Positions 36,285-52,142 of a stretch of 64,000 nt of DNA are shown piece by piece. The notes under the pieces are model-generated. The model saw only the letters and a program-made list of their open reading frames with translations. It searched no databases and was not told the origin of the DNA. How positions within the stretch are numbered: position 1 is the stretch's first letter; every line of letters starts with the position of its first letter. The stretch comes from Candidatus Latescibacterota bacterium (GTDB lineage: Bacteria; Latescibacterota; UBA2968; UBA8231). The stretch spans positions 224,001-288,000 of the forward strand of contig OZ220089.1 in NCBI GenBank assembly GCA_964291625.2, written 5' to 3'. The position numbers and the translations under genes were made by a program.

Positions 36285-37024
36285 GCGGCCGCCGCGCCCT
36301 GATCCTGGGGGCCCGCTCGGCGATCGCCGCAGCCCTGGCGGAACGGCTCGCCGGGGACGGCTGGGACCTGGTATTGGCGGCGCGGGACTGCCGGAGGCTG
36401 GAGCCGGCGGCCGCCGACCTGCGCTTGCGCCGCCAGCGGCAAGTGGACCTGCTGGAGTTCGACGCCCTCGACCTGGAGGCCCACGCAGGGCTCGCCGACC
36501 GGGTGCGTGCCACCGCGGGGCCCTTCGACCTGGTGGTCTGCGTCTTCGGGTACTCCGGCGATCCGGAGGAGGCGCGGCACGACACCGGGGAGATGACGGC
36601 GACGCTGACGACCAACTTCACCGCCGCCGCCGTCTGCCTCGGCCACCTGGCCAACGACCTGGAGGGCCGCGGGCAGGGCGGCATCATCGCCGTGAGCTCC
36701 GTCGCCGGCGACCGGGGGCGGCAGTCGAACTACGTGTACGGCGCCTCGAAGGGGGGGCTGAACGTCTTTCTGCAGGGCCTGCGGAACCGTCTGGCCCCTG
36801 CCGGGGTGCACGTGATGACGGTGAAGCCGGGGTTCGTGGACACGCCCATGACCCAGGGCCGCGAGGGGCTGTTCCTGGTGGCCTCGCCGGAGCGGGTGGC
36901 CGCCGACATCCTGCGCGCCTGGCGTCGGCGGCGGAACGTGGTCTACACGCCCTGGTTCTGGCGCTGGATCATGCTCCTGATCCGCCTCGTGCCGGAGGGG
37001 TTGTTCAAGCGCCTGAGGCTGTAG
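36281..37024 (+). CDS. SDR oxidoreductase, DprE2-like
   Basis: GTGA overlap; ILGARSAIA, SSVAGDRGRQSNYVYGASK and KPGFVDTPMT motifs. Confidence 0.85.
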   Translation: MSGRRALILGARSAIAAALAERLAGDGWDLVLAARDCRRLEPAAADLRLRRQRQVDLLEFDALDLEAHAGLADRVRATAGPFDLVVCVFGYSGDPEEARHDTGEMTATLTTNFTAAAVCLGHLANDLEGRGQGGIIAVSSVAGDRGRQSNYVYGASKGGLNVFLQGLRNRLAPAGVHVMTVKPGFVDTPMTQGREGLFLVASPERVAADILRAWRRRRNVVYTPWFWRWIMLLIRLVPEGLFKRLRL

Positions 37025-39239
37025 GGGCCGGAGGGTCCGGATCCTCCAGGGCCTCTCGCAGGCGGGCGGCGAGGTTGGTGTTCCGGCGGGCCGGGCGGTC
37101 GTTCTCGATGGCCCGCCGCAGGGCGCGCTGGCTGCCGATGAGGACGAAGAGCTCCCGGGCCCGGGTGACGGCGGTGTAGAGCAGGTTGCGCTGCAGCATC
37201 GGGTAGTGCTGGGTGGTCAGGGGCAGGACGACGGCCGGGAACTCCGAGCCCTGGGCGCGGTGGATGCTGATGGCGTAGGCCATGCTCAGCTGGTCGAGCT
37301 CGGCCAGCTCGTAGCGCTGCACGCCGCCGTCGTCGAAGACGACCTCGGCGAAGGACTCTTCCCCCGTTTCCAGGCGGCCGATGCGCCCCAGGTCGCCGTT
37401 GAAGACCCCCTTGTCGTAGTTGTTGCGCACCTGCATCACCCGGTCTCCCTCGCGCAGCTCGCGGTCGCCGATGGCGTGAGGCTTGCGCCCCGGGTTCAGG
37501 CGCTCCTGGAGCTGGCGGTTGAGCTGCACCGCGCCGGTCTCTCCGCGGTACATGGGAGTCAGGACCTGGATCTGCCGCATGGGGTCGAGATCCCGGCCCT
37601 GCGGCATCCGCCGGGACACCAGGTCCACCAGGCGCTGGGAGACCCGGGCGGGGTCGTCCTCCTCGACGAAGTAGAAGCCGGAGTCGGCGCGGTTGTCGAT
37701 CCGGGGCCACTCGCCGCCGTTGATGCGGTGGGCGTTGGTGACGATGAGGTTGTCGCCCGCCTGGCGGTAGATGTGGCGCAGGCGCGCCACGGGCACGACG
37801 CCGGAGTCGATGACATCCCCGAGGAGATTGCCGGGACCGACCGAGGGCAACTGGTCGGCGTCGCCCACGAGGACCAGCCGGGCGCCGTCGGGGACGGCCC
37901 GGAGCAGCGCGTTCATCAGGTTGATGTCGACCATGGAGCTCTCGTCGACGATGACCGCCTCCGCTTCGATGGGCTGGTTGCCATCGCGGCGGAAGCCGCC
38001 CTCCCGGGGGGCGTACTCCAGAAGCCTGTGGATGGTTCGGGCCTCGCGGCCGGTGGCCTCGCCCAGGCGCTTGGCGGCCCGCCCCGTGGGCGAGCACAGG
38101 GCCACCCGCAGGCCGGACGCCTCCAGGCGCCCCACGATCTGGCGGGTGATGGTGGTCTTGCCCGTGCCGGGGCCGCCGGTGACGACCAGGACCTTCCCCG
38201 CCCCCATCTGCTCCAGGGCCCATCGCTGGTCCTCTCCCAAGGACGCCTCCTCCTCGGCATCCGCCTCCCCCACCTCCTTCGCCAGGGCCGGACCCGGGGA
38301 GGTGAGTATCCGCTCCAGGGCCCGGGCCACCCCCCGCTCGGCCCGGTGCAGCCGCCCCGGATAGCAGTCCCGCCCCTCCACGACTACGTCACCCGCTTCC
38401 TGGAGGGCCGAGAGGGCCTCCGGTACTCGGCTGGAGTCGACGCCGAGGAGGAGCTCGGTCGCCGAGGCCAGCTCCTCCTCGGGCAGGAAGAGATGGCCCT
38501 CGTCGGCGGCTTCCTGCAGCAGGTAGCGGAGGCCGGCGCGCACGCGCTCCGGGGCGTCGCGGGCGATGCCGAGATCCCCGGCGATGCGGTCCGCCGTCTG
38601 GAAGCCGATGCCGCGCACGTCGCGCTGCAGCCGGTAGGGATCCTGCCGGACGCTGTGGATCGCCTCCGCGCCGTACTGCTGGTAGATGCGTACCGCGTGC
38701 CCCGTGCCGACGCCGTGGGACTGGAGGAAGACCATGACGTCGCGGATGCGCCGCTGCTCCTTCCAGGCCTCGGCGATGGCCTGAGCCCGCTTGCGCCCCA
38801 AACCCTCGATCTCCAGCAGCCGCCGCGGCTGAGCGTCGATCACTTCGAGGGAGGAGTCGCCGAAGCGGGCGACGATGCGCCTGGCCATGACCGGACCGAT
38901 CCCCTTGATCAGCCCCGAGCCGAGGTAACGCTCGATGCCTTCGGCGGTGGCGGGGTACTCGGGGATGCACGACTCCACCCGCAGCTGGCGGCCGAAGCGG
39001 GGATGGAGGTCCCAGCTCCCCTCCAGCCGCACGCTCTCGCCGGCGGAGACCGCCATGGTGCCGACGACGGTGACCGGCTCCCCCTCGCCTTCCGGGCGCA
39101 GCCGGGCGATGGTGTAGCCGTTCTCCGGGTTCTGGAAGGTGATGTGGTCGATGAGCCCCTTGAGGCGCACACCCGGCCCGGAGGCCGGGTCCTCCGGCGG
39201 CGCCCTCCCGGGGCCTTCGAAGAGGTCGCGCTCGCTCAC
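37005..39239 (-). CDS. recD2: ATP-dependent RecD2-like DNA helicase
   Basis: GTG at 39239; YLGSGLIKGIG, GIGFQTAD, TGGPGTGKT, DESSM, GDADQLPSVG and IHRAQGSE motifs. Confidence 0.93.
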   Translation of the reverse strand: MSERDLFEGPGRAPPEDPASGPGVRLKGLIDHITFQNPENGYTIARLRPEGEGEPVTVVGTMAVSAGESVRLEGSWDLHPRFGRQLRVESCIPEYPATAEGIERYLGSGLIKGIGPVMARRIVARFGDSSLEVIDAQPRRLLEIEGLGRKRAQAIAEAWKEQRRIRDVMVFLQSHGVGTGHAVRIYQQYGAEAIHSVRQDPYRLQRDVRGIGFQTADRIAGDLGIARDAPERVRAGLRYLLQEAADEGHLFLPEEELASATELLLGVDSSRVPEALSALQEAGDVVVEGRDCYPGRLHRAERGVARALERILTSPGPALAKEVGEADAEEEASLGEDQRWALEQMGAGKVLVVTGGPGTGKTTITRQIVGRLEASGLRVALCSPTGRAAKRLGEATGREARTIHRLLEYAPREGGFRRDGNQPIEAEAVIVDESSMVDINLMNALLRAVPDGARLVLVGDADQLPSVGPGNLLGDVIDSGVVPVARLRHIYRQAGDNLIVTNAHRINGGEWPRIDNRADSGFYFVEEDDPARVSQRLVDLVSRRMPQGRDLDPMRQIQVLTPMYRGETGAVQLNRQLQERLNPGRKPHAIGDRELREGDRVMQVRNNYDKGVFNGDLGRIGRLETGEESFAEVVFDDGGVQRYELAELDQLSMAYAISIHRAQGSEFPAVVLPLTTQHYPMLQRNLLYTAVTRARELFVLIGSQRALRRAIENDRPARRNTNLAARLREALEDPDPPAPTASGA

Positions 39240-39877
39240 ATCAAGGCAGCTCGCAGCAGCAGGGTGACGGCCGCCCCGAGGGCGGCGCCGGCCACCAGTT
39301 GCGCCGGCGAATGGGCCTGCCGCCGCCAGCGGGCCCACCCCGCCGCCAGGGGCAGCAGCGCGCACAGGGGCCACCACGCGGCTTCCACGAGGGTGGCCGC
39401 CAGCGCCGCCCCTCCCCCGGCGCCGGTGGTGTGGATGCTGATCTTCCACCGGCGGTTCACCAGGCCGACGCCGGCGGCGCCCACTGCGAAGGACGCCGCC
39501 GCCCAGCGCTGCACCGGCGGCATCTGCAGCCCCTGGAGGAGCGCGAACCCGACGGCGTAGCAGAGGGTCCCGACGAGCAGGAACCGGCTGCGCAGAGGGC
39601 GGGGGGGATCGTAGATGTCGTCGACTCCCCCGCCCCTGGCCAGCCAGCCCAGGAGGGCCGCGGGGCCGATGGAGAACAGCAGGATGGCCAGGGCCTTGCC
39701 CCCCGCCGACCTCAGGGGATCGCCGCCGGCGGGCAGCCACAGGAAGACGACCAGGGCCAGTCCCGGCGGGCTCAGGAGATGGGTGATGCAGCGCGCCGCC
39801 CCGTCGGTCCAGCCCGACCGGTCCGCCGCGGCTTGCGCGTCTCCGTCCCCGCCGTCACCCCCGGGCCGGGCCCTCAC
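39236..39877 (-). CDS. PAP2-like integral membrane protein
   Basis: GTG at 39877 overlaps the upstream stop; multiple TMs; WKISIH and WAR...QAHSPAQLVAG motifs. Confidence 0.65.
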   Translation of the reverse strand: MRARPGGDGGDGDAQAAADRSGWTDGAARCITHLLSPPGLALVVFLWLPAGGDPLRSAGGKALAILLFSIGPAALLGWLARGGGVDDIYDPPRPLRSRFLLVGTLCYAVGFALLQGLQMPPVQRWAAASFAVGAAGVGLVNRRWKISIHTTGAGGGAALAATLVEAAWWPLCALLPLAAGWARWRRQAHSPAQLVAGAALGAAVTLLLRAALM

Positions 39878-40311
39878 CGCTTCCACTTCTTGCCGCTGGC
39901 ATCCCTCCCTCTCCTGGCCCCCCCGGAACCCGCTTTGCCGGCGCCCTCCACGAGGAAGCCGATGAACCGCTTCTGACCGAGGGTCTTCAGGTAGGAGAGC
40001 AGGGAGACCTCCGCTTCCTTGCGGTCGAGCTTGTACCGGTCCCGGAGGCCTTCGATCATGTCCGCCACCGAGTTGCGGCCGTCGCACATCTGCCAGACCT
40101 GCGCGCCCACCTCGTCGAGGGTGATGGTCCGCTTCTCGGGGATGTAGAAGAGCTTCGACAGGAGGCGGGTCTTCCAGGTCTCCTGCCGCGTCACCGTTAT
40201 CCGGATCTCACCCTCCTCCGTCTTCTCCCACGCCAGCAGCTCGTTGCGGGCCGGCCGCGACTCCAGCATGGCGTCCCGCGTCAGCCGCGGCTTCTTCTTC
40301 GTGGCAAACAT
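39874..40311 (-). CDS. PqqD-family / RiPP recognition element-like protein
   Basis: TLDEVGAQVWQMCDGRNSVADMIEGLRDRY...EVSLLSYLKTL matches the PqqD winged-helix pattern. Confidence 0.8.
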   Translation of the reverse strand: MFATKKKPRLTRDAMLESRPARNELLAWEKTEEGEIRITVTRQETWKTRLLSKLFYIPEKRTITLDEVGAQVWQMCDGRNSVADMIEGLRDRYKLDRKEAEVSLLSYLKTLGQKRFIGFLVEGAGKAGSGGARRGRDASGKKWKR

Positions 40312-41329
40312 ATCCGTCCATGACTTCGTCGAGGGTGTCGCCGCCTTGTTCGCGCTTCTTGAACAGATGCTCGACGATGCAGATGCGATTCAAGTCGGGG
40401 CAGTGCCAGACCGCGCCCCGCAGGTAGCGCCTCGGCCTCGGGTTGACGAAGGGCAGGGGCCGCAGCACCTGGCGCCAGCGGCTCTGGGGCCGGCCGGTGA
40501 CGCGCAGGCCATCGTGGCCGCGGAAGTCGGCCCGGGCGATCTCGTGGTTCACGTCGCGCAGGTCCTTGCGGAAGAAGGAAGGGTACCAGTTTGAAAGGTC
40601 CGTCCCCTTCAGCAGCATGTGGGCCATGCTCAGGCGGTGCACGCGCAGGACCTGGGCGCCCCCGTCCTTCTCGAAGGTCATCTTCACGTGGCCCGACTTC
40701 AACTCCTTCTCGGTGAGCTCGAAGTCCGCGGGGGCGTGGAAGGTGAGGCCGTACAGGCTCCAGTACTGCAACTCGCCGCGGGGGTGGTCCTCGAGGGTGG
40801 GCAGGATCTCGTTCACCAGGCCGATCACGCCGCCGCCGTCGTCCTTTGCCGCGAGCACCCGCAGGAGCACGATGCGGCCGCAGTCCGGACAGGCGCGGGC
40901 CAGGTTGTAGGCCCGGTAGTCTGCCTCCCAGACGAAAGTCTCGTACTCGCTGCCCTCGAGCCAGCGCTTGTCCTGGAGGAACTTCGCGCGCCGCTCGACG
41001 CGCAGCTCCATGCCCGCCTTGTCGGCTTTCTTCTGCAGCTGGGAGAGATAGCGCCCCACGAGGTCCTCGACGGGCCGGCGGATGCCCCGCTTGGGAGGGG
41101 CCCGCCACTCGACCTCGGCCCGCACCATGCGGGTGTCGTCGAGGCGCGCGTAGCCGCTGGCGGCGTCGCCGTCGACCCGGCCCATCTCCCACTCCTCCGG
41201 GACGCGCAGCCGGATCCCCTGCCAGCCGAAGTCGTAGCGTCTGCCCCCCGCGGCCTGACGGGATCTTCCGGCGGGCTGCCGGGTCGGAGCCCCGCCTTCC
41301 ACGGCCGGAAGTCCGTCGCTTGCGGACAT
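40208..41329 (-). CDS. Hypothetical protein with two internally repeated (PsbP/DcrB-like?) domains
   Basis: ATG at 41329. FGWQGIRLRVPEEWE...CPDCGRIV repeats as WSLYGLTFHAPADFE...CPDLNRIC. The 3' end overlaps the PqqD-like gene by 104 nt. Confidence 0.7.
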   Translation of the reverse strand: MSASDGLPAVEGGAPTRQPAGRSRQAAGGRRYDFGWQGIRLRVPEEWEMGRVDGDAASGYARLDDTRMVRAEVEWRAPPKRGIRRPVEDLVGRYLSQLQKKADKAGMELRVERRAKFLQDKRWLEGSEYETFVWEADYRAYNLARACPDCGRIVLLRVLAAKDDGGGVIGLVNEILPTLEDHPRGELQYWSLYGLTFHAPADFELTEKELKSGHVKMTFEKDGGAQVLRVHRLSMAHMLLKGTDLSNWYPSFFRKDLRDVNHEIARADFRGHDGLRVTGRPQSRWRQVLRPLPFVNPRPRRYLRGAVWHCPDLNRICIVEHLFKKREQGGDTLDEVMDGYVCHEEEAAADAGRHAGVAAGPQRAAGVGEDGGG

Positions 41330-41352
41330 GGACCTTCCCGACCCGGACGCGC

Positions 41353-43836
41353 TTAGAAGATGAGGACCGACACCGACTTCTGGATCAGGGCGATGGAGAT
41401 CGACGCCATGCCCATGAGCGCCATGCCGCAGGCGAAGCCGACGGCGAGGACGGGCGCGTACGTGCGCCACTGTTGTCGTCCGTAGCGGTTCCAGAAGTAG
41501 TACCGGGCCAGCATGGCGCCGATGACCTCGGTGATCATCCAGTGCGGTATCGTCGTCAGGGCGCGGACGTACCCAAAGACGAGGAGGATCGGCAGCCCGA
41601 AGGCCGACAGAAAGATGTAGCTGCCCAGGCCGACGACGGTCCCGGCGACGATGAGGTTCGGCTTGATGGCGCGGAAGAGCCACGGCTCGTCGGTGGAACG
41701 CTGGATCCAGGGACTGGTGAAGTTCGGATCGGTGTCGACGGCGAAGTAGTACTCCCAGCCGGCGGGCAGGGACTGGGCGCTGGAGGCGAGGAGGGCGGGG
41801 CGAGGCGTGTCGACGACGCCGATCACCGGTCTCTCGCCCTCGACCAGGTCGGGGATGCGGTCCGGGGTGGCGACGGCGTCGCGGACCAGCTCGGCGGCGT
41901 GCGCCAGGCCCGCGACAGCGGGGCCGGCGGCGCTCACCTCGTAGCCCGCTCCGGCCGGGAGCGCCTTCTCCAGGGCGCCGGGCGGCAAGGGCGGCACGTC
42001 TTCGGGCATACCCTCGCCGAAGTGGGTGTAGAAGGCGCGCTTCTCGGACCAGGGGCCGGCCTCCCCGAGCTTGCCCTGCGACTCTATCCACTTGCTGTCG
42101 GCGGCGCGCACTCGCCAGTACCACCACTCCCCTTCCACCAGGTTCGAGGGCACCCAGGTGGCGCTGTTGCGCTCCGGCGACTCCTTCAGCTCGCTCTTCA
42201 GGGTGCCGGTGAACCAGATGCATGTCTGCAGGGCCCGGAGGCGCCACATGACCTGGGCATAGGGGTACGAGGCCGAGGGGATGGGGGCCAGCTTCCAGAT
42301 GTAGGAGGAGTAGAGGAAGGTGGCGAAGAGCACGATGGGCACCATCACCACCTCGGCCTTGATGATGCTCGTGAACTTGGTGCCCGTGAGCTCGATCTCG
42401 CGGAACTTCTGGGTCTGGGAGCCGTAGTTGCCCAGCGGGAAGGGCATGAACCAGATGTCCACGCCCTGGTACCCGGAGAGGATGATCGTCGCCTCGCGCA
42501 CGTAGGGGATCTCGATCGTCTGCCCCACCATGCCCACGAGGCGCGCGTTGACGAAGGACTGGAACGGCGTCAGCACGAACCCGAAGAACAGGAAGAACCA
42601 GATGAACTGGTGGAAGGCGGGCAGGAAGATCCAGGCGATGACGATGAGGCCGGCGGCGGTGAGCCCGTACAGGGTCAGGGCGATCCACATGGGGAAGTCG
42701 CCGCGCCCTTCGGGCACCGCCCAGGAACCGCCCCCCCTGCCGGAGGCCCTGGCGGCGGCGGCGGTGCGCAGCCCCTGCACGACCTGCCAGATACCGATGA
42801 GGGCGATGGCGATGGTCGTGCCGATGCCGAAGCTCATCCAGAAGTCGACGGAGTTGACGAAGAAGGTCTCGATGGCGCCCATGCCGGGCTGCCAGATCTG
42901 CAGGTAGCCGAGGTCGTAGAGGATCGGGTTGGCCACCGAGTGGGCGACGACGCCGAGGAAGGTGCCCATGACCCCCCAGAAAGGCATGACGAGGCCGGCG
43001 AAGATCGGCCCCAGATGGGCGGTGAACCCGAGGGGGGTGGCGGGGATGAAGTTGCCCGTGACCTGGGTGAAGTCGACGAAGGGAATGGGGATCAGCTGGA
43101 TCGGCTTGGTGAGCAGGGAGCCGGAGATCGCCGGGATCGCCACGTACAAGGTGCCGAAGACCAGGCCGATCATGGCCCCGGCGGAGAACGCCCTCCAGCG
43201 CCACGACTCCACCCCCTGGGTGGTCTCGGCCAGGGCCGTGGCCCCCTGGGCGGCGACGGGCGCGAAGGGAAAGGGCAGGCGCTCGTAGTCGGAGTTCAGC
43301 CGGAAGAGGGCATAGGCCATGGTGAACCACGAGACCCGCGAGATCACGAACTGCGCCAGCAGCAGCGAGATGGGGATGATCCAGTCGGTGTGCAGGAAGG
43401 TCCGCTGCAGCAGCGCCGGCGACTCCAGGGGCGGCGCCCACCAGTCCGGGATCAGGTTGGCGATGCCGAACTGCTGCGCCGGCGGCGACTGGCGCAGGTA
43501 CTGGTTCCACAGCAGCCCCTCGAAGGCGCCGGTCTCGGCGGCGATCAGTCCCGCCGCCACGTAGTAGAGGACGTATACCTCCTGGCGCGTCAGGGAGGTG
43601 AAGGAGCGCTTGGTGATCTCGGCGAAGAGGATGATCGTCACCCACTCCGCCGCGGCGCCGAGGGAACCGCCCACCATGAGGCTGAGGTACATGTTCCCCG
43701 GGATCATGACGAAGGCGACGAAGAAGACGCCGAGGATCGCCTTGCGGGTGAAGCCGTCCTCGAACTCGGTCGGCGTCTCGAGGAGGTCGCGGTACTCTTC
43801 GACTTCCTGGTTGGCGTTGCTCTTGCGTCTCAGCAT
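41353..43836 (-). CDS. OPT/YSL-like oligopeptide transporter with a soluble insertion
   Basis: 827 aa with many TMs; N-terminal FEDGFTRKAILG..F...MIPGNMYLSL; ERLPFPFAPV; C-terminal GFACGMAL. Confidence 0.7.
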   Translation of the reverse strand: MLRRKSNANQEVEEYRDLLETPTEFEDGFTRKAILGVFFVAFVMIPGNMYLSLMVGGSLGAAAEWVTIILFAEITKRSFTSLTRQEVYVLYYVAAGLIAAETGAFEGLLWNQYLRQSPPAQQFGIANLIPDWWAPPLESPALLQRTFLHTDWIIPISLLLAQFVISRVSWFTMAYALFRLNSDYERLPFPFAPVAAQGATALAETTQGVESWRWRAFSAGAMIGLVFGTLYVAIPAISGSLLTKPIQLIPIPFVDFTQVTGNFIPATPLGFTAHLGPIFAGLVMPFWGVMGTFLGVVAHSVANPILYDLGYLQIWQPGMGAIETFFVNSVDFWMSFGIGTTIAIALIGIWQVVQGLRTAAAARASGRGGGSWAVPEGRGDFPMWIALTLYGLTAAGLIVIAWIFLPAFHQFIWFFLFFGFVLTPFQSFVNARLVGMVGQTIEIPYVREATIILSGYQGVDIWFMPFPLGNYGSQTQKFREIELTGTKFTSIIKAEVVMVPIVLFATFLYSSYIWKLAPIPSASYPYAQVMWRLRALQTCIWFTGTLKSELKESPERNSATWVPSNLVEGEWWYWRVRAADSKWIESQGKLGEAGPWSEKRAFYTHFGEGMPEDVPPLPPGALEKALPAGAGYEVSAAGPAVAGLAHAAELVRDAVATPDRIPDLVEGERPVIGVVDTPRPALLASSAQSLPAGWEYYFAVDTDPNFTSPWIQRSTDEPWLFRAIKPNLIVAGTVVGLGSYIFLSAFGLPILLVFGYVRALTTIPHWMITEVIGAMLARYYFWNRYGRQQWRTYAPVLAVGFACGMALMGMASISIALIQKSVSVLIF

Positions 43837-43854
43837 TCTCGGAAGGGCCGCGGT

Positions 43855-46800
43855 TCAGGCGGAGACGGAATCGGCGGGGGCGCCGGCCAGCAGTTCCTGC
43901 CCCTGGCTCCGGTAGGCCTCCTTGGCCTCGGAGTCGACGGTGCGCCAGATGAGGAACTGCTTGCGGATGACGTTCATGAAGCGCTGGTTGACGCGCCGCC
44001 ACGAGGCGTCCTCGCCGCTCAGGCGGCGGATGTCGAGCTGGATCTGGTAGATGTTGTGCTCGGACTCGGGCAGGGCGCGGATGACGACGTGCTGGCTCAC
44101 CCCCAGGTCGAAGGGCGCCAGCCAGATGTTCATGTCGATGGTGTACCCCTCGCCGTACTCGGAGTCGAGGCGGCCCAGCTTGGCGCCGTCGGTGTAGAAG
44201 GTCCCGATCGATTCCTCGGAGTAGGAGTCGAAGTAGCCGATGAGGAAGACCGACAGGCCGAGGACGTCGCGCCCCGCCACGGTGAAGGGGAACTCGAAGT
44301 GCCAGTCGTCCCCTTCGGGCCGGGGCAGCCGCCAGCGGCGGGTCACGTCGGGTACCGCCATCTGCGACGCCCGGCGCGCCGGGTAGATGGTGGAGAGCAT
44401 GACCACCGCCATCACCAGGATGCAGGAGAGCACCGCCGACAGGGACGAGTAGTTGAGGGTGAAGCCGGTGACCACCCCGAGCTGGGTCAGAAGGGTCGCC
44501 GTGATCTGACCGACGAGGTAGCCGGCCACCACCCCGAGGACGGAGTAGACGCAGGACTCGGCCATGAACAGCCAGGCGATATGCCCCGGCGCCAGGCCCA
44601 CGGAGGAGTAGATGCCGATCTCGCGGAAGCGCTCGTAGACGCTGCCCATCATCGTGTTGAGGACGATGAGGGCGGCGATGAGGATCGGCACGAAGAGGTT
44701 GGCCACCCCCGACAGCGAGGTCATGCCCAGGGAGCTGTAGATCGACACCTTGATGTAGTCGTCCCCCGGCTCCTGGATGCCGGCGAAGAGGGTCACCGCC
44801 AGGCGCGACAGGAACTGCTCGATCTCGGCGCGCTCGTCGACGCCCTCGTCGAAGCGGATCGCCACCGACTGCAGGGGATTGCCGCTGCCCACGTTGCGCA
44901 GCGTGTGGTACGGCAGGATCAGGGTGTTGGCCGGCTCCAGGTGGACGAAGGGCTTGATCACCACCTGCGCGTCCTCGAGGCCCTGCTTCTCCCGCTGCTC
45001 CTCCTCGGCGATCTCCTGCACCGCCTGGCCGCCGGTGACGGCGAAGTCGGCGGGCGTCATCGTCTCGTCGTCGAGGTCCTTCAGCTCCTTCATGCGCGTG
45101 GAGTTGATGATGCCGATGACGGTGAACTGCTCGCCGAAGACGCGCACCGTGGCGCCGCCGGCGTCGACCTCGCCCATGTCGATGCCGAGCTTGTCGGCCC
45201 CGAGCATATCGTTGGGCAGGATGCAGACCCTCTCCTCGCCCTCCTGGAACCAGCGTCCCGCCAGCAGGGCCTGGTCGAGGCCTGTCACCTCGGTCTCGGA
45301 CGGGGTCAGGCCGAGGACGCCGAGGGCGTTATGGGCATCCTCGCCGTACTTGATCTTGATGTGGGCCTTCTTCTGGTTGTCGTACCAGCTCCGCGGCGCG
45401 ATGGCGGCCCGGTCGCCGAAGTTGCTGTGGGCGTACTCGAGGACCGACTCCTCCAGCGGCGTCCACGCCTTGCTGCGGATCAGCAGGCCCTCGTAGAGCC
45501 CCTCGTTGTCGCGCTCGATCTGGTTGTAGCGCAGGGCCGTCTGGATGGACGTGAAGGACAGGACCGTGAAGGTGAGCAGCAGCAGGGTGACGAAGGTCAG
45601 CGCCGTGCGCAGCTTGCGGCGCTTCATGTTGCTGATGCCCAGGAGGAAGGCGGTGAGGGAGGCGCTGGAGCGGCTCACGTCGGTGTCGTGGATGACCGCC
45701 ACCTCGGTGCGCAGTTTCTTCATCTGCTCGTTGAAGCGGCCGGAGATGATCCACATGACGAGGACCGCGAGGACGAGGATCACGAAGGCCAGGAGGATGA
45801 CGAAGGGGTTGGACAACTCGAAGGCCGGGTGGACGAAGGAGAGGACGATCCAGATGACGAGGAAGATGCCCGCGAAGCCCATGATCTGGCGCTGGATCGT
45901 GGCCGCGGTGATCAGCAGGCGCTCGGCGAAGTAGGCGCAGGGCAGGACCAGGGCCATGAAGAAGATGATGCCCTGGATGACGTCGTTCTGGGTCGACTTG
46001 ACGTCGGGATAGGCCCGCGACTCGAGGCCGATGGCCGAGCGCGTGTGGCGCACGAACGCGCTCCACTCCTTGCGCTCCAGGGCCGCCGCCGCCCGTTCCA
46101 GCTCTCCCCGGGCGCGCTCGTGCAGGTCGTTCAGGCGCTGGTTCTCGATGGCGAAGCTCCGCAGCTCGCGCATGCGGGCCTCGTCGAGGGTCCACATGTC
46201 CCTGGCCGACTGGTAGGAGGTGCGCGCGAAGGAGGATCCCGGCTCCATGGCGAAGCCCGCGCCCAGGGCCTCCTCCTTGTCGTCGGGGTTCTCGGAGTTC
46301 AGCAGCAGGGAGCGGAAGCCGAGGATCCCGGCGCCGAAGCCCATCTTCACCAGGGCTCCCGGCCGGGCGAAGAGCACGCCCACCGGCTCGTCCTTGGCCG
46401 AGGGGCCCTCCCCGATGGTGTATCCGTACTCCACGGGGGAGGCGTTGGTCTCGTCGAAGACGGTGACCTCGGAGAGCTTGGTGAGGTAGCGGGGATCGAC
46501 GATGTCGAAGAAGTTGAAGGCCTGGCACGGGAAGAGGACGACCATCCACTCCTTGTCGCGCCAGTCCATCTTGATCAGCATCGGGTAGGCCTGGTCGCCC
46601 TGGATGCCGCGGTCCGGCGCGTAGCTGACCCGTCCGGTGGCCGGGTCCATGCGGTAACCCTCCACCTGGACCTGCTCGACGCGGATGCGGTTGACGAAGA
46701 AGGCGCCGTCGCCGTCGACGACTTCGAAGTACTCGCCGCGCACGCCCTTGTAGGACTTCTTCTTGCCGTTGCGCACGACGCCGACAGCGCCCGTGCGCGG

Positions 46801-48693
46801 CAGGTCGGGAACGATGCTGCGCCTCGGGAAGACCATGGTCCGCGCCTTCAGGGACCGCATCGTGTCCTTGAGGCGCATCTTGAAGTCGGGGAACAGCTCC
46901 GGATCCTCGAAGGCCATGTGGAACATCCCCGCCAGGGCCCGGATCTGCCGCGAGAGGTTGTCGTAGCGGATGTGCTGCGCCCGGTCGAGGGGCGTGTCGA
47001 CGAGGAACCGGGCATCGTTGACGGTGACGAAGGCCAGGGCGGGGGTGCCCGTGGTCAGCACCAGCTCGCTGTTCACGGAAATCTCGCCGGGGACGAAGGT
47101 CTCCCAGCTCTTCCCCCCCTCGGGACTGATGCCGTTCACCAGGACGTCGCGGAAGCTGTAGCCCAGCTCGCGGCTCACCTTTCGCGAGTACCCCATGAAG
47201 TTCTTGCCGAAGGGTGCGAAGTAGCGCTTGTAGTAGAAGCTCGAGTTGCTGTTCCAGATGCCGAGCTCGTCGGTCTGCGTCGACAGGTCGAGGCTGATGA
47301 ACAGGTTCACGTCGAGGGAATCGACCTTCGGATCGACCCACTCGCGGTAGAAACCCAGGCGCAGGTCCTCGTCGTCGCCGAGCTCCCTCAGCAACTCGTC
47401 GGAGGTGTCGAAGGAGGCCTGGCGCCGGTCGCCCCCCTTCCGGTAGCGGAGCCGCCAGTCGTCGCCGTCGCGGACGATCAGGTCTTCCCCGTCGGCCATG
47501 GAGGCCCTGGCCACGGCGCGCACCAGCAGGGTGTCGGTCTCGGCCACGGAGCGCACCAGCGCCTCCTTGCCGCTGAAGGTCTCCTCGCCGAGACGGTAGG
47601 TGACCCCGTCCTCCCCCTCGCCGATCAGCCCGCGGGCCAGGGACGCTTCGACGACCCGGCGCAGGACCATGCGGTCGATGAAGGGGTTCTCGTCGCGCAG
47701 GTAGCGCTGGATGAAGTCGTCGATGCCGCGCAGGGCGAGGTGGTGCGCGGAGGTGGCGAGGAACAGGACCGAGCGCGCCGGGGGATGCTCGCGGAAGTAC
47801 CGGGCCAGCTCGAGCAGGGCCGTGATCCCCGCCGCCTGCTCGGCGCCGGGTGCGAGGGAAGGCACGACCGACATGGCGTCGTAGTACGACTCCAGGACGA
47901 TCACGTCCTCCTGGAGCAGAGGGTCGTAACCGGGGATGAAGCCCATGACGTTCCAGGCCGGGCGCCGCTCCCAGTCCATGCGGTACTCGAGGTGGACCGA
48001 GGGCGGCGTACCCGCGCCCTCGATCGCCTCCCGCAGCAGTCCGCCGTCCGCGCCGCTGACCCAGAACCGGGGCAGGTCGAGGGGCATGGTGAGGAACTTC
48101 TTCTCGCCTTCGAGATAGACGGTCGAGTCGGGCTCGATGAAGACGACGGCGGCAGCGCCGAGGTAGGCGCCGTTGAGCCAGTTGTCGCCGGAGTTGAAGT
48201 CGAGGACGACGACGGCTCCCGCCACGTCCTGGCCGTCGAGCTCCTCGAACTCCCCCCGGCCGCCGTAGATCAGGGGCCCGTGGATGCCGCCGTCGGGCAG
48301 GGTCGAGGTGCGCACCAGGTTGGGCCACAGTCCGTGGAGCTCCACGGACGGCCCTCCCGCGATCCTCAGCCGCCCTCCCTGGTCGACGGGCACGGAGACG
48401 TCGTACTTGTGGAAGGTGATGTCGTGCAGACCGATCTGCCGGAACTGGCGGTGCACGTGCAGGGCCGCCTGCTCGGCGCCGGGATAGCCGGCCACGCGCG
48501 AACCGAGGCCCGAGAAGAATCCCACGGTCTGGCGCAGACGGTCCTCCGGCGCCAGCTCGCGCAGGGCCTCGAAGTCGACTTCGGCCGCCGCCGGCGCCGC
48601 CGCGAGGACGGCGAGCAGGCCGAGGGACCCCGCGCGCAGACGGAGAAACGGGCGGATATCGGTCATGACCGGGTAATGATCGGCAAACGGCAT
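43855..48693 (-). CDS. Giant PA/M28-peptidase-fold + FtsX/MacB-like permease fusion (about 1600 aa; start 48693 or 48666)
   Basis: Signal peptide ending AAA-EV; SRVAGYPG and GPLIYGGRG (PA); M28-like NVMGFIPG...YYDA...PGA; MKRRKLRTALT and VYERFREIGIYSSVGL...YPARRA (FtsX). Confidence 0.8.
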   Translation of the reverse strand: MPFADHYPVMTDIRPFLRLRAGSLGLLAVLAAAPAAAEVDFEALRELAPEDRLRQTVGFFSGLGSRVAGYPGAEQAALHVHRQFRQIGLHDITFHKYDVSVPVDQGGRLRIAGGPSVELHGLWPNLVRTSTLPDGGIHGPLIYGGRGEFEELDGQDVAGAVVVLDFNSGDNWLNGAYLGAAAVVFIEPDSTVYLEGEKKFLTMPLDLPRFWVSGADGGLLREAIEGAGTPPSVHLEYRMDWERRPAWNVMGFIPGYDPLLQEDVIVLESYYDAMSVVPSLAPGAEQAAGITALLELARYFREHPPARSVLFLATSAHHLALRGIDDFIQRYLRDENPFIDRMVLRRVVEASLARGLIGEGEDGVTYRLGEETFSGKEALVRSVAETDTLLVRAVARASMADGEDLIVRDGDDWRLRYRKGGDRRQASFDTSDELLRELGDDEDLRLGFYREWVDPKVDSLDVNLFISLDLSTQTDELGIWNSNSSFYYKRYFAPFGKNFMGYSRKVSRELGYSFRDVLVNGISPEGGKSWETFVPGEISVNSELVLTTGTPALAFVTVNDARFLVDTPLDRAQHIRYDNLSRQIRALAGMFHMAFEDPELFPDFKMRLKDTMRSLKARTMVFPRRSIVPDLPRTGAVGVVRNGKKKSYKGVRGEYFEVVDGDGAFFVNRIRVEQVQVEGYRMDPATGRVSYAPDRGIQGDQAYPMLIKMDWRDKEWMVVLFPCQAFNFFDIVDPRYLTKLSEVTVFDETNASPVEYGYTIGEGPSAKDEPVGVLFARPGALVKMGFGAGILGFRSLLLNSENPDDKEEALGAGFAMEPGSSFARTSYQSARDMWTLDEARMRELRSFAIENQRLNDLHERARGELERAAAALERKEWSAFVRHTRSAIGLESRAYPDVKSTQNDVIQGIIFFMALVLPCAYFAERLLITAATIQRQIMGFAGIFLVIWIVLSFVHPAFELSNPFVILLAFVILVLAVLVMWIISGRFNEQMKKLRTEVAVIHDTDVSRSSASLTAFLLGISNMKRRKLRTALTFVTLLLLTFTVLSFTSIQTALRYNQIERDNEGLYEGLLIRSKAWTPLEESVLEYAHSNFGDRAAIAPRSWYDNQKKAHIKIKYGEDAHNALGVLGLTPSETEVTGLDQALLAGRWFQEGEERVCILPNDMLGADKLGIDMGEVDAGGATVRVFGEQFTVIGIINSTRMKELKDLDDETMTPADFAVTGGQAVQEIAEEEQREKQGLEDAQVVIKPFVHLEPANTLILPYHTLRNVGSGNPLQSVAIRFDEGVDERAEIEQFLSRLAVTLFAGIQEPGDDYIKVSIYSSLGMTSLSGVANLFVPILIAALIVLNTMMGSVYERFREIGIYSSVGLAPGHIAWLFMAESCVYSVLGVVAGYLVGQITATLLTQLGVVTGFTLNYSSLSAVLSCILVMAVVMLSTIYPARRASQMAVPDVTRRWRLPRPEGDDWHFEFPFTVAGRDVLGLSVFLIGYFDSYSEESIGTFYTDGAKLGRLDSEYGEGYTIDMNIWLAPFDLGVSQHVVIRALPESEHNIYQIQLDIRRLSGEDASWRRVNQRFMNVIRKQFLIWRTVDSEAKEAYRSQGQELLAGAPADSVSA

Positions 48694-48704
48694 GGGCCCC
48701 GCAA

Positions 48705-49235
48705 TCACCGCCGGGGGGCGAGACCTCCCCCGTAGCCCGCCCTGGCCAGGGCCCTCACCGCGTAGTAGGTGATCAGCCCCGTCATCGCCCCGGAGAGGAC
48801 GCCGCCCACCAGGAAGAGGGGCAGCAGCCGCAGCAGACCCGCCTGGGAGAGGTAGATCTCGGCCACCAGCAGCTGCGTCACCTGGTGGACGACGGCTCCC
48901 GCGATGCTCAGCCCCACGGGGCTCAACAGGCCGGGCACGGATCGCCGCAGGCCGACCATCGCGGCCAGGCTCGTGAGGGCGGCGCTGCCCCCGATGACCG
49001 ACGCCGGGCCGGCCAGACCGCCGCTCAGCAGACCGCCGACGAGGACCTTCACGGCGCCCACCGCCGCCGCCGGACCGCCGCCGAAGAGCAGCAGCGTCGC
49101 CAGGACGGCGGCGTTGCCGAGTCCGAGCTTCATCCACGGCAGGGGGCGCGGCACCGCCGTTTCGAAGACGAAGAGGATCAGAGCGGCGGCCGACATCAGG
49201 CCCAGGAAGGCGGCGCGCCTGCCGGGCGAGAGCAT
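48705..49235 (-). CDS. Gx transporter family (heptaprenyl diphosphate synthase component I-like) membrane protein
   Basis: FETAVPRPLPWMKLGLGN and GLSIAGAVVHQVTQL motifs. Confidence 0.85.
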   Translation of the reverse strand: MLSPGRRAAFLGLMSAAALILFVFETAVPRPLPWMKLGLGNAAVLATLLLFGGGPAAAVGAVKVLVGGLLSGGLAGPASVIGGSAALTSLAAMVGLRRSVPGLLSPVGLSIAGAVVHQVTQLLVAEIYLSQAGLLRLLPLFLVGGVLSGAMTGLITYYAVRALARAGYGGGLAPRR

Positions 49236-49660
49236 CAGCGGCTGACCCCGTCGAAGGCGGGGCCGCCCTCGCCTTCGACCCGGACCACCAGATGGTTGGG
49301 GACACAGACCGCCACGTCGCCCACCGCCCGCAGCCAGCCGCGGCGGACGCAGATCCGCCGGGCGCAGGGAGAGGCGGCCACGCGGACGCGGCTGCCGTCG
49401 ACCACCACCTCGCTCGCCCCGGCGGGGCCGGGGACCTCGATCCGCGCCGCTTCGCTCAGCGGCAGGAGGCGCACGACCTCGCCTCCCACCTGGACGCTCG
49501 CCGACCGGGGGGTACCGCCGCCGGGCCTCGACACGAGCAGGACCGCCGCCAACAGCAGAACCGCCGCCGCGAGGACGATGTCGCCCGGGCTGGGAGGCAG
49601 GGGCCGGTACGGCTTGACACTCCCCCTGGGGCTGTTTACACTGCCGAGAGCGCCACGCAA
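49235..49660 (-). CDS. NusG domain II (DUF1312) protein; start uncertain
   Basis: N-terminal GD+TM; SPCARRICVRRGWL...VCVPNHLVV signature. Confidence 0.85.
   Translation of the reverse strand: MRGALGSVNSPRGSVKPYRPLPPSPGDIVLAAAVLLLAAVLLVSRPGGGTPRSASVQVGGEVVRLLPLSEAARIEVPGPAGASEVVVDGSRVRVAASPCARRICVRRGWLRAVGDVAVCVPNHLVVRVEGEGGPAFDGVSR
49614..49642 (+). promoter_or_regulatory. Near-consensus sigma70 promoter upstream of rel
   Basis: TTGACA (49614-19), N17, TACACT (49637-42). Confidence 0.7.
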
Positions 49661-49767
49661 GGCCGTATCTCGTTGTCGGCTATGGAGTAACCGCCGTTTC
49701 GCGAGGCCTGCTTCGAGGCCTCCGGCCCCCCCTTGCCCGTCGAGCCCGCAACGGCGCCACCGGGCTT

Positions 49768-52056: not shown

Positions 52057-52085
52057 CCGCCGCCGCGTCCGGCACCGGGAGGCCG

Positions 52086-52115
52086 TTGACACGATGCGCG
52101 GAGCCCGGGTACCTT
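52086..52115 (+). promoter_or_regulatory. Putative sigma70 promoter of hisC
   Basis: TTGACA (52086-91), N18, TACCTT (52110-15). Confidence 0.55.
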
Positions 52116-52142
52116 GCCGCCGGTTCCGCTCGCACCCGGCCC

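Follow-up and report, generated by a model that had tools for sequence, protein, structure and literature searches.

What does a row of genes do that combines a giant exported protein carrying an FtsX-type permease, an OPT-like transporter, a two-repeat protein and a PqqD-like protein? The question arises from a locus of a Candidatus Latescibacterota genome, which lies in a stretch of 64,000 nucleotides (the window; positions are counted from its first letter). An earlier note, made from the letters of the window, had proposed a membrane system that handles peptides and matches no characterised pathway. We conclude that the locus encodes most of a real, conserved and uncharacterised multi-subunit envelope system of this phylum. 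Conserved gene order shows or strongly implies that the giant, the OPT-fold protein, a tandem PsbP-like protein, the PqqD protein, a small FtsX permease and an ATPase belong together. Our preferred reading of their function, which we hold tentatively, is that giant, small FtsX and ATPase form a mechanotransducer of the type VII ABC class, which takes hold of an oligomer in the periplasm (probably a peptide) and passes it on to an OPT-type importer.

Organization of the locus

The whole row (37005–49660) lies on the minus strand, with no plus-strand member. Read in the direction of the genes, it begins with two genes assigned by Pfam, a NusG_II protein gene (49235–49660) and, overlapping it by 1 nt, a gene for a membrane protein of the Hpre_diP_synt_I family (48705–49235). 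The giant gene follows after 11 nt (43855–48693; 1612 aa), the OPT-like gene after a further 18 nt (41353–43836; 827 aa) and the gene for a 373-aa protein after 23 nt (40208–41329). The end of the last overlaps the start of the PqqD gene (39874–40311; 145 aa) by 104 nt. The PqqD gene overlaps a PAP2-like membrane ORF with a GTG start (39236–39886) by about 13 nt, and this in turn overlaps recD2, which encodes a RecD2 helicase according to its Pfam matches (37005–39239), by 4 nt. The co-oriented and tightly packed row described in the earlier note is thus confirmed. Third-position GC is 0.88–0.96 in every frame from NusG_II through recD2.

No ATPase is encoded among the genes scanned from 36281 to 53198, and the intergenic gaps of the row are too short to hold a precursor ORF, in line with the claimed absence of a precursor peptide. 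Promoter and terminator scans of the locus gave signal no better than shuffled sequence, and no Rfam family matches there. The locus is covered by contigs from metatranscriptome libraries of three studies, in which DNA carry-over is possible. Single contigs from these RNA libraries, which come without strand, transcript ends or expression level, span the PqqD/373-aa and the 373-aa/OPT-like junctions. Parts of the locus are uncovered in runs X16–X18, which is not evidence of silence.

The giant protein

As first noted, the giant is an exported PA/M28-fold protein of about 1600 residues fused to an FtsX/MacB permease. A signal peptide (residues about 14–38) is followed by an extracytoplasmic PA and M28-like region (about 39–330), defined by Pfam M28 and by the PA+M28 aminopeptidase YwaD, which aligns with residues 18–330 (47704–48642, minus strand, as are all parts of the giant). 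Residues 331–904 form a conserved ectodomain, defined by invariant columns in eight giants and assigned to no family. According to hydropathy, three extra TM helices (905–983) precede the FtsX/MacB module (44359–45612), in which about 275 residues, the periplasmic domain 1051–1326, separate TM1 (1032–1050) from TM2–4 (1327–1436). The FtsX model PF02687 matches residues 1334–1445 with 57.2 bits (cut-off 25.5) and is present in all eight aligned giants; MacB_PCD (PF12704; 28.7 bits, cut-off 27, residues 1041–1218) matches the window's giant only. The protein ends in a cytoplasmic domain of about 165 aa (residues 1446–1612; 43858–44358), which has 24 invariant columns (alignment A4) and belongs to no known family; it matches neither any PDB sequence nor, at the profile level, the 373-aa family.

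The M28-like domain has a non-canonical site. Peptidase_M28 scores 29.1 bits against a cut-off of 21.3, but over profile positions 1–78 of 193 only, and the model matches seven of the eight giants; the Pfam PA model matches two of them, the window's own giant not included. Compared with YwaD and leucyl aminopeptidase, all 11 aligned giants have His replaced by Tyr, Asp by Glu and Glu-Glu by His-His or His-Phe (YYD for HxD, GAE for GAxD, HH/HF for EE); of the zinc ligands His, Asp, Glu, Asp and His, the last two cannot be mapped in this alignment. Since the canonical His and Glu-Glu are missing, the Zn exopeptidase activity assumed in the earlier note is not to be taken for granted, and peptide processing is doubtful. 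Residues Y270, Y271, D272, E285 and H317 are invariant in the eight giants, and this conservation could reflect a different chemistry.

The OPT-like protein

The N-terminal peptide of the OPT-like protein is cytoplasmic and conserved. A soluble insert of about 175 aa (residues about 545–720), predicted to be periplasmic, is variable and differs among paralogs (alignment A1). Its AlphaFold model (pLDDT 70.8) gave significant Foldseek matches in the PDB to barley Yellow Stripe 1 only (7wst, E 5e-9; 7wsr, E 1e-8), the next match having an E-value of 0.05. The TM-score with 7wst is 0.62 normalised by the target, at 12–15% identity. The predicted fold bears out the OPT-like call, whereas sequence models of OPT are not matched: no Pfam family, OPT included, matches the protein, and TIGR00728 gives a weak C-terminal match of 17.4 bits (cut-off 128.35). 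The profile of the family found no match among PDB sequences. A motif spotted by eye, ERLPFPFAP, resembles what we take to be the OPT signature. Judging from its predicted fold, the protein may carry out proton-coupled import of peptides or metal chelates.

More than 2581 homologs exist, all unnamed or annotated as 'hypothetical'. Comparison with the DUF6785 profile gave a probability of 44% (E 2.4e-4) across some 200 columns at the N-terminus, and BLASTP against a DUF6785 protein found nothing; kinship of the two families is suggestive only. It should be noted that both the failure of the OPT sequence models and the weak profile link to DUF6785 speak against our preferred reading.

The PsbP-like and PqqD proteins

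The predicted model of the 373-aa protein (pLDDT 80.1) consists of two tandem PsbP/Mog1/DUF1795-like domains, in agreement with the two repeats seen earlier. Foldseek found 19 PDB matches at E ≤ 0.001, among them PsbP (first; 4rth, E 4.8e-5), TplEi/Tli4 and Eag chaperones, at 6–15% identity. Each half matches PsbP with a TM-score of 0.59 by target; over its full length the protein can be superposed on two-domain T6SS immunity proteins, though with poor rmsd. It matches none of the Pfam or NCBIfam families. The protein has no hydrophobic segment and no signal peptide and is therefore most likely cytoplasmic, as had been supposed. Its family comprises 1881 clusters at E ≤ 0.001. A complex prediction for its residues 28–346 with PqqD, using alignments as input, reached a best score of 0.26 (mark 0.32), which counts neither for nor against contact of the two.

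The PqqD assignment is sound at the level of the Pfam family (PF05402, 49.5 bits, cut-off 23.4), and the protein reaches the cut-off of none of the PqqD subfamilies in NCBIfam. It has a conserved 57-residue N-terminal extension (alignment A5) and a helix-rich C-terminal half, and its gene is the sole PqqD gene of the source genome.

PqqD/RRE domains are binders of leader peptides, and the PF05402 match thus favours a role of the locus in RiPP-like maturation and export, in which PqqD would recognise the leader peptide of a precursor encoded elsewhere, the PsbP-like protein would act as its chaperone, FtsX and ATPase would export the product and the giant would be a periplasmic processing station. 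Similarity of the ATPase described below to export ATPases points the same way: the darobactin model DarD scores 210 bits and the bacteriocin model L_ocin_972_ABC 194 bits, each below its cut-off. We nevertheless regard this as quite unlikely. The packed clusters examined contain no precursor ORF, radical SAM, YcaO or protease gene, and neither the window's row nor the compact clusters L040, L042 and L084–L086 contain a precursor or modifying enzyme. The sole PqqD gene of the genome sits in a row of membrane-system genes, and in a distant genome (G102, below) the PqqD-like genes of the clusters examined (L084, L085 and L067) all have membrane-subunit or ABC genes as neighbours and in no case a modifying enzyme. 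To our knowledge, OPT-fold proteins have no role in export. In favour of a RiPP-type role, RRE-containing clusters, which may or may not be the present locus, are reported in sponge-associated Latescibacterota MAGs (PMC12993501).

Gene order in relatives

We fetched 44 loci around orthologs of the 373-aa gene, of which 39 were distinct after removal of five duplicates; a locus search with the four-row alignment A3 gave 24 loci. Giant, OPT-like, 373-aa and PqqD genes form one row in 21 of the 39 distinct loci. Giant and OPT-like genes are immediately upstream of the 373-aa gene in 21, not counting one locus cut by a contig end, and PqqD follows the 373-aa gene in 34. The co-occurrence of M28+FtsX, OPT-like and PqqD genes, put forward as a check of the original proposal, is thus found. 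Most of the 21 syntenic loci come from one family of close kin, and related genomes are not independent samples. Small FtsX and a MacB/LolD-type ATPase directly follow PqqD in five of the 39 loci (L037, L040, L042, L066 and L067), and in two further families PqqD adjoins small FtsX instead (by coordinates, for example in G015, G010, G025 and G004). In the families f2, f3 and f5, the 373-aa/PqqD pair lies apart from giant, OPT-like, small FtsX and ATPase genes.

Across 101 genomes of the phylum, the OPT-like protein is present in 87, the PsbP-like in 84, small FtsX in 82 and PqqD in 81. All four are absent from the 13 genomes of family f9, which are 64–97% complete. Of the 13 families sampled, 12 have the genes for small FtsX, ATPase, PqqD and the PsbP-like protein, each as a single copy, and giant + OPT-like pairs number one to six per genome.

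The same components recur in G102, a distant MAG labelled Planctomycetota, in three paralogous clusters with giant, OPT-like and one or two ABC ATPase genes, joined by PqqD, PsbP-like and small FtsX in differing subsets. L085 has the order giant, OPT-like, PsbP-like, PqqD, small FtsX, ATPase. L084 and L086 each contain giant, OPT-like, DUF6785 and two ATPase genes; L084 additionally has PqqD, small FtsX and a PsbP-like gene, and at the contig end of L086 lies a C-terminal fragment that resembles FtsX, recognised by eye only. A separate row, L067, consists of PsbP-like, PqqD, FtsX and ATPase genes.

These data bear on the idea that the genes are neighbours without joint function, adjacency in the window being inherited gene order. 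The isolated 373-aa/PqqD pair of f2, f3 and f5 and the close kinship of most syntenic loci would fit this idea. It is hardly credible, given that the same families are regrouped in other orders in distant lineages and in the three G102 clusters, and that OPT-like, PsbP-like, PqqD and small FtsX share one pattern of presence and absence.

The gene order also delimits the system. An opposite-strand flagellin gene stands between PqqD and the PAP2-like gene in six loci of the window's own family (L028, L050, L053, L054, L057 and L058), so that the PAP2-like gene, which the earlier note had placed in the system, and recD2 most likely form a separate unit outside it. The PAP2 call itself is weakly supported, since PF01569 scores 22.8 bits against a cut-off of 27.2, over profile positions 52–121 only; the ORF has five hydrophobic segments. 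RecD2 is matched by HHH_RecD2 (135 bits) and, also above cut-offs, by AAA_19/AAA_30, UvrD_C_2 and SH3_13. We considered the PAP2-like ORF as a decayed small FtsX and rejected this, because no FtsX model matches it and the genuine ortholog is encoded at another place in the genome. On the other side of the row, 17 of the 18 distinct loci from the window's family have the NusG_II and Hpre_diP_synt_I pair upstream; the exception, L051, comes from a contig that begins inside the Hpre gene, so just that gene is visible. Adjacency of the pair to the giant is confined to the window's own family and absent from the loci of the others.

ATPase, small FtsX and paralogs in the source genome

The statement that the cluster lacks an ATPase holds for the window's row, but the system is not without one: the gene is in-cluster in L037, L040, L042, L066, L067, L084, L085 and L086. 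Adjacent orthologs of small FtsX and ATPase lie in the source genome at C1:1882586–1884104, 1.6 Mb from the row (ATPase, MacB/LolD-type, C1:1882586–1883383), and are 60% and 74% identical, respectively, to those of L040. Small FtsX (about 230 aa) matches Pfam FtsX with 69.5 bits and the ATPase matches ABC_tran with 116 bits. This ATPase is the putative partner of the permease, to which it would bind.

Paralogs, which the original proposal had suggested looking for along with a cognate ATPase, also exist. Giant + OPT-like pairs occur at five places in the source genome, the giants at the other four being paralogs, and PqqD and the 373-aa gene are single-copy. DUF6785/DUF6784 membrane proteins are encoded at three of those four places, and the 27 DUF6785 genes of the genome are often near genes of glycan-degradation type. 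Because the ATPase is unlinked in the source genome and the 373-aa/PqqD pair stands apart in f2, f3 and f5, the case for co-function rests on other lineages.

Two further explanations have to be weighed against these findings. The first is envelope remodelling of the FtsEX type, in which ATPase and small FtsX would drive the giant, its M28-like ectodomain would act on or bind peptidoglycan peptides or another envelope polymer and the OPT-like protein would recycle the fragments. Among type VII ABC systems, FtsEX-EnvC and YbbAP-TesA regulate a hydrolase in the periplasm, and in the giant a domain resembling a hydrolase is part of the same chain as FtsX. The single-copy set in 12 of 13 families would suit a housekeeping function, LysM occurs in 19% of the members of one related giant cluster in the ESM Atlas, and in L039 the PsbP-like gene follows mreB-like, PBP2 and RodA genes. 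No canonical FtsX was found in the source genome (best TIGR00439 match 31 bits, cut-off 255), but the absence is weak evidence, since the control passes its own cut-off in just one of 14 reference genomes. The mre/rod neighbourhood is a single instance, and one to six giant + OPT-like pairs per genome with variable inserts better fit substrate-specific uptake. We know of no M28 enzyme that acts as a wall hydrolase, and we consider remodelling unlikely.

The second is sensing or detoxification of the BceAB type, by which the FtsX machine would detect or remove an envelope-active compound and signal through the PsbP-like and PqqD proteins. FtsX-type permeases of Firmicutes with large extracytoplasmic domains are sensors or detoxifiers, and the clusters do encode accessory proteins in the cytoplasm whose folds are of binding type. 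On the other hand, the clusters have no conserved kinase, response regulator or transcription factor, and the constant OPT-fold or DUF6785 permease partner would be left unexplained, which makes this very improbable.

Proposed mechanism

According to the preferred import reading, the FtsX module of the giant would pair with small FtsX, like LolC with LolE, and bind the ATPase, giving a type VII (MacB-like) ABC mechanotransducer. Cytoplasmic ATP hydrolysis would drive motion of the giant's periplasmic PA/M28-like ectodomain of about 900 residues, which would bind, rather than canonically cleave, an oligomer in the periplasm, the most likely candidate being a peptide or a fragment of a protein. 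From there the substrate, which we infer to be a peptide, would pass to the OPT-type permease and be imported. The PsbP-like and PqqD/RRE proteins would work at the cytoplasmic face, possibly as adaptors or regulators. Their ligand could be the peptide that is imported or else a peptide stretch belonging to the machine, for instance the conserved N-terminal tail of the OPT-like protein. The single-copy set of ATPase, small FtsX, PqqD and PsbP-like protein would serve all five giant + OPT-like pairs of the source genome.

Import direction and a nutrient role are suggested by the only significant fold matches of the OPT-like protein, which are to an OPT-superfamily importer, by the DUF6785 genes near genes of glycan-degradation type and by the insert that varies between OPT-like paralogs. 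Type VII ABC systems spend ATP on envelope work, according to two sources (PMC5985334, PMC12646458). Further points count against the import reading, besides the altered M28-like site and those given above. The type VII ABC systems known to us expel, extract or activate, and we know of none that feeds an importer. PqqD/RRE proteins otherwise belong with RiPP maturation, for which this reading has no explanation.

An unlikely but more specific version would be a hybrid primary/secondary machine, in which the heteromeric mechanotransducer physically gates or loads the OPT permease, PqqD/RRE is repurposed from recognising RiPP leaders to serving as a subunit adaptor, and one motor set serves several pairs. 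PqqD and the tandem PsbP-like protein would then bind a conserved tail of the machine and the pairs would be substrate-specific, comparable to TonB-ExbBD serving many outer-membrane receptors.

Significance and comparison with known systems

Literature searches found no description of the system, nothing on DUF6785, nothing linking PqqD or Latescibacteria with FtsX and, on FtsX permeases with M28, unrelated work only; together with the recurrent gene order, this upholds the view of a conserved membrane system that matches no described pathway. If our reading is true, the system would extend the type VII ABC group of FtsEX, LolCDE, MacAB and YbbAP by another kind, the first to be coupled to an OPT-fold permease. 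PqqD/RRE domains would gain a role outside RiPP biosynthesis, and thousands of 'hypothetical' proteins (the OPT-like homologs and PsbP-like clusters counted above) a function. Both families are nearly ubiquitous in Latescibacterota, a phylum without cultured members that is common in sponges and sediments. 'RRE-containing clusters' obtained by genome mining in this phylum may be the present transport-type locus and not a natural-product pathway.

The ectodomain of the giant resembles nicalin, which shares the M28-like fold, replaced metal and catalytic residues and a membrane-anchored ectodomain, with a weak sequence match (E 0.007). Nicastrin and the transferrin receptor are presumably comparable as non-catalytic M28/PA ectodomains. 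All three belong to eukaryotic complexes without an ABC module, whereas the replaced positions are strictly conserved in the giants. The halves of the 373-aa protein share the PsbP/Mog1/DcrB/DUF1795 fold with PsbP, Tli4/TplEi and Eag chaperones, in a different gene context. The PqqD protein agrees with known PqqD/RRE proteins in its above-cut-off PF05402 match, size and helix-rich C-terminal half, and differs in its N-terminal extension of about 57 residues, its linkage to ABC and membrane genes and the lack of a precursor or modifying enzyme nearby. With the OPT/YSL family (barley Yellow Stripe 1, 7wst) the OPT-like protein has in common the predicted fold and the weak TIGR00728 match; unlike that family it lacks a Pfam OPT match, has the variable insert of about 175 residues and is always encoded beside a giant FtsX gene.

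Like LolCDE, the fullest clusters contain two FtsX-type permease genes and one ATPase gene. The best NCBIfam match of the ATPase is LolD (236 vs 308 bits) and small FtsX matches lolCE (48 vs 362), both far below the equivalog cut-offs; small FtsX is almost without a periplasmic domain, and the heterodimer is putative. FtsEX-EnvC and YbbAP-TesA share with our system an ATPase of the LolD/MacB/FtsE kind, an extracytoplasmic part that resembles a hydrolase and a four-TM FtsX/MacB permease whose TM1 and TM2 flank a periplasmic domain. In contrast to both, a PA + M28-like domain is here fused to the permease via three extra TM helices, a second, minimal FtsX is encoded separately, the ATPase is unlinked in the source genome, and the constant partners are an OPT-fold permease, PqqD and a tandem PsbP-like protein.

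Gene row and encoded proteins

In the window (GC content about 70%), true reading frames are marked by a third-position GC of 0.88–0.96. The row lies on the minus strand and begins with NusG_II (49235–49660), which overlaps the gene of the Hpre_diP_synt_I family (48705–49235) by 1 nt. After an 11-nt gap follows the giant (43855–48693), an exported PA/M28-like protein fused to an FtsX/MacB permease, then after 18 nt the OPT-like membrane protein (41353–43836) and after 23 nt the gene of a 373-aa protein (40208–41329). The latter overlaps the PqqD gene (39874–40311) by 104 nt, PqqD overlaps the PAP2-like ORF (39236–39886) by about 13 nt, and this overlaps recD2 (37005–39239), the last gene of the row, by 4 nt. 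The gene spacing in the earlier note agrees with these coordinates; the row reaches further upstream than noted, to NusG_II and Hpre_diP_synt_I. Divergent from the row head is a RelA/SpoT-family (p)ppGpp synthetase/hydrolase (49768–52056), an adjacency kept in loci of the window's own family (f1). In the 104-nt overlap (40208–40311), the last codons of the 373-aa gene and the first of PqqD are read in different frames; the overlap is kept in f1 (82–100 nt) and f5 loci (88 nt), and the overlapped tail of the 373-aa protein is disordered in the model (pLDDT <50 from residue 346).

The giant exceeds the Pfam thresholds for FtsX, MacB_PCD and Peptidase_M28, the last match spanning only profile positions 1–78 of 193. 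Its layout by hydropathy comprises a signal peptide, an ectodomain of ~865 residues, three TM helices, the FtsX module, whose TM1 and TM2 are separated by ~275 periplasmic residues, and a cytoplasmic C-terminal domain of ~165 residues. This last domain is conserved among giants and has no match to anything searched. YwaD, a PA+M28 aminopeptidase, aligns to residues 18–330; there, as in all 11 giants aligned, the M28 His is replaced by Tyr, the bridging Asp by Glu, and Glu-Glu by His-His or His-Phe. Eight giants that are 37–45% identical to the window's show no variation at the substituted positions (Y270, Y271, D272, E285 and H317). With the canonical residues replaced by invariant others, the giant does not qualify as a canonical di-zinc aminopeptidase, nor is its M28-like domain in decay.

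The OPT-like protein has no Pfam family match and a faint match to TIGR00728. The only significant PDB matches of its model (pLDDT 70.8) are to barley Yellow Stripe 1 (7wst, E 5e-9), the next unrelated match having an E of 0.05. The 373-aa protein is confidently modelled (pLDDT 80.1) as two tandem PsbP/Mog1/DUF1795-like domains, and hydropathy reveals no hydrophobic segment. The PqqD protein, encoded by the sole such gene in the genome, passes the PF05402 cut-off, as the earlier note had called it; the PAP2-like ORF, also called in that note, scores under the Pfam threshold for PAP2.

Paralogs in the window's genome

The genome (5.9 Mb, two contigs, C1 and C2) contains five giant + OPT-like pairs, and no paralogs of the 373-aa and PqqD genes were found in it. 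Thus, the giant and the OPT-type permease are the core repeated module, and the window's copy is the one with single-copy accessory genes. At three of the four places outside the window, DUF6785/DUF6784 membrane proteins adjoin the pair. The genome has 27 DUF6785/DUF6784 genes (e.g., C2:1029763–1031259 and C1:4460933–4462423) versus no match in 14 reference genomes, and neighbours of the DUF6785 genes include PcRGLX/GH127-like, GH32-like, DUF4838, MR_MLE, FG-GAP/ASPIC, T9SS-CTD and sugar-acid-dehydratase-type genes. This expansion and these neighbours suggest that DUF6785/DUF6784 proteins are uptake permeases of polysaccharide-utilisation-type loci.

A further cluster of this genome (L022:7363–16969 = C1:4229362–4238968), 12 kb downstream from where a giant and a DUF6785 gene form a pair, encodes, in order, an FtsX permease (395 aa), an ABC ATPase (226 aa), a TPR/FG-GAP/ASPIC protein (903 aa), an OPT-like paralog (901 aa) and DUF6785 (714 aa). 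Inspection by eye of the OPT-like alignment (columns 410–440 and 950–1000) shows a Cys-rich C..C...C..C loop insert in the paralogs of L022, L023 and L024, which also carry DxDxDG-type Asp-rich repeats in a soluble insert; the ortholog of L037 has a long repeat-rich insert in place of these features. No canonical FtsX was detected in the genome, the best TIGR00439 match reaching 31 bits where the cut-off is 255, which is weak evidence for absence, as the model passes its own cut-off in just 1 of 14 control genomes.

Gene order in relatives

We retrieved the neighbourhoods of 373-aa orthologs, 44 loci in all, and mapped the window proteins onto them by tblastn; 39 are distinct (L048=L025, L059=L035, L062=L033, L063=L041, L065=L036). 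Named homologs come from MAGs of Candidatus Latescibacterota, some of which carry a Gemmatimonadetes label, and all are annotated as unnamed or 'hypothetical'. The 373-aa gene is followed by PqqD in 34 of the 39 loci; of the other five, four belong to families f4, f7 and f13, and in the fifth the contig ends. The earlier note had proposed a search for co-occurrence, and the row of giant, OPT-like, 373-aa and PqqD genes does recur: giant and OPT-like lie directly upstream of the 373-aa gene in 21 of 39 loci (18 from f1, the rest from f6, f8 and f11), besides L044, whose contig ends inside the row. In f2, f3 and f5 the 373-aa and PqqD genes lie as a pair apart from the other genes of the system. 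In a single instance (L039:4775–11986, f13), the 373-aa ortholog is preceded by an mreB-like gene, two small ORFs and the genes of PBP2 and RodA, the last two with confirmed identities.

The NusG_II + Hpre_diP_synt_I pair is upstream in f1 only, sometimes with a DUF6785 gene between. Six f1 loci have a flagellin gene on the other strand that separates PqqD from the PAP2-like gene (L053:11609–12772, confirmed by Pfam; same position in L028, L050, L054, L057 and L058); the window has none there. In these six loci, the PAP2-like ORF remains joined to recD2. Given this intervening gene, PAP2-like and recD2 most likely lie outside the system; the earlier note had counted PAP2-like within it and seen recD2 as coupled downstream.

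The earlier note saw no ATPase in the cluster and proposed to look elsewhere in the genome. Clusters of relatives do contain one: in L037, L040 and L042 (f6, f8 and f11), PqqD is directly followed by a small FtsX and an ABC ATPase, and likewise in L066 and L067, from two MAGs labelled Planctomycetota. The small FtsX has ~228 aa in Latescibacterota loci and 346–357 aa in L066 and L067; the best NCBIfam matches of the ATPase are LolD, MacB and DevA. In f7 and f13, judging by coordinates, PqqD adjoins the small FtsX, not the 373-aa gene (e.g., G015:C3 103545–103916 and 103951–104589). In the window's genome the two orthologs lie side by side on C1, the small FtsX at 1883400–1884104 (60% identical to the L040 protein) and the ATPase at 1882586–1883383 (74%).

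The MAG that holds L067 has four OPT-like genes, and three of their clusters contain ATPases. The order is giant, OPT-like, PsbP-like, PqqD, small FtsX, ATPase in L085; ATPase, PqqD, giant, OPT-like, DUF6785, small FtsX, ATPase, PsbP-like in L084; and, after an FtsX-like C-terminal fragment recognised only by eye where the contig ends, ATPase, giant, OPT-like, ATPase, DUF6785 in L086. No other evidence speaks as strongly for a joint function of giant, OPT-like, PsbP-like, PqqD, small FtsX and ATPase as this reassembly of the same families in varied orders in paralogous clusters.

Distribution and occurrence

In one common sample of 101 phylum genomes, OPT-like has a match in 87, the 373-aa protein in 84, small FtsX in 82 and PqqD in 81; the last three families are single-copy in nearly all genomes having them. 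None of the four occurs in the 13 genomes of f9 (64–97% complete), and misses outside f9 are in genomes 57–89% complete. Because related genomes are non-independent, the pattern counts as roughly one loss or gain event.

The stretch 39800–49700 was found in sponge and marine metagenome runs and is present at about half or more of its sampled words in 11 public runs. Those with uncoded labels are four sponge metagenomes and one marine metagenome, which points to a sponge-associated organism. Contigs of metatranscriptome libraries from three studies cover the locus (run X2 has depth in 30/30 bins), and two gene junctions are spanned by single contigs that are near-identical; such libraries can contain DNA, and contig continuity over a pair of genes does not amount to a transcript. 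PMC12993501 describes sponge Latescibacterota MAGs with 'RRE-containing' clusters, which may be this locus. Full-text literature searches turned up no description of the locus or of DUF6785.

Proposed function and comparison with known systems

We tentatively favour nutrient capture and import, whereby the system would capture nutrients and bring them into the cell. Three points favour it: the OPT-superfamily proteins characterised to date import their substrates; giant + permease pairs occur in several copies, and their periplasmic inserts vary; and DUF6785 genes adjoin PcRGLX/GH127-like, GH32-like, DUF4838 and sugar-acid-dehydratase-type genes. An envelope-remodelling machine seems less likely, a peptide-export system less likely again, and a module for sensing the least likely of these.

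According to PMC5985334, PMC12646458, PMC7668044 and PMC8333309, type VII ABC systems convert cytoplasmic ATP hydrolysis into mechanical work in the envelope. The anatomy of the proposed system fits this class. Its new features are a partner of OPT-fold or DUF6785 type that is always present, together with the cytoplasmic pair of PqqD and PsbP-like proteins. The two different FtsX genes are reminiscent of LolC and LolE, and the hydrolase-like ectodomain of the giant recalls FtsEX-EnvC and YbbAP-TesA, except that here it is fused to the permease.
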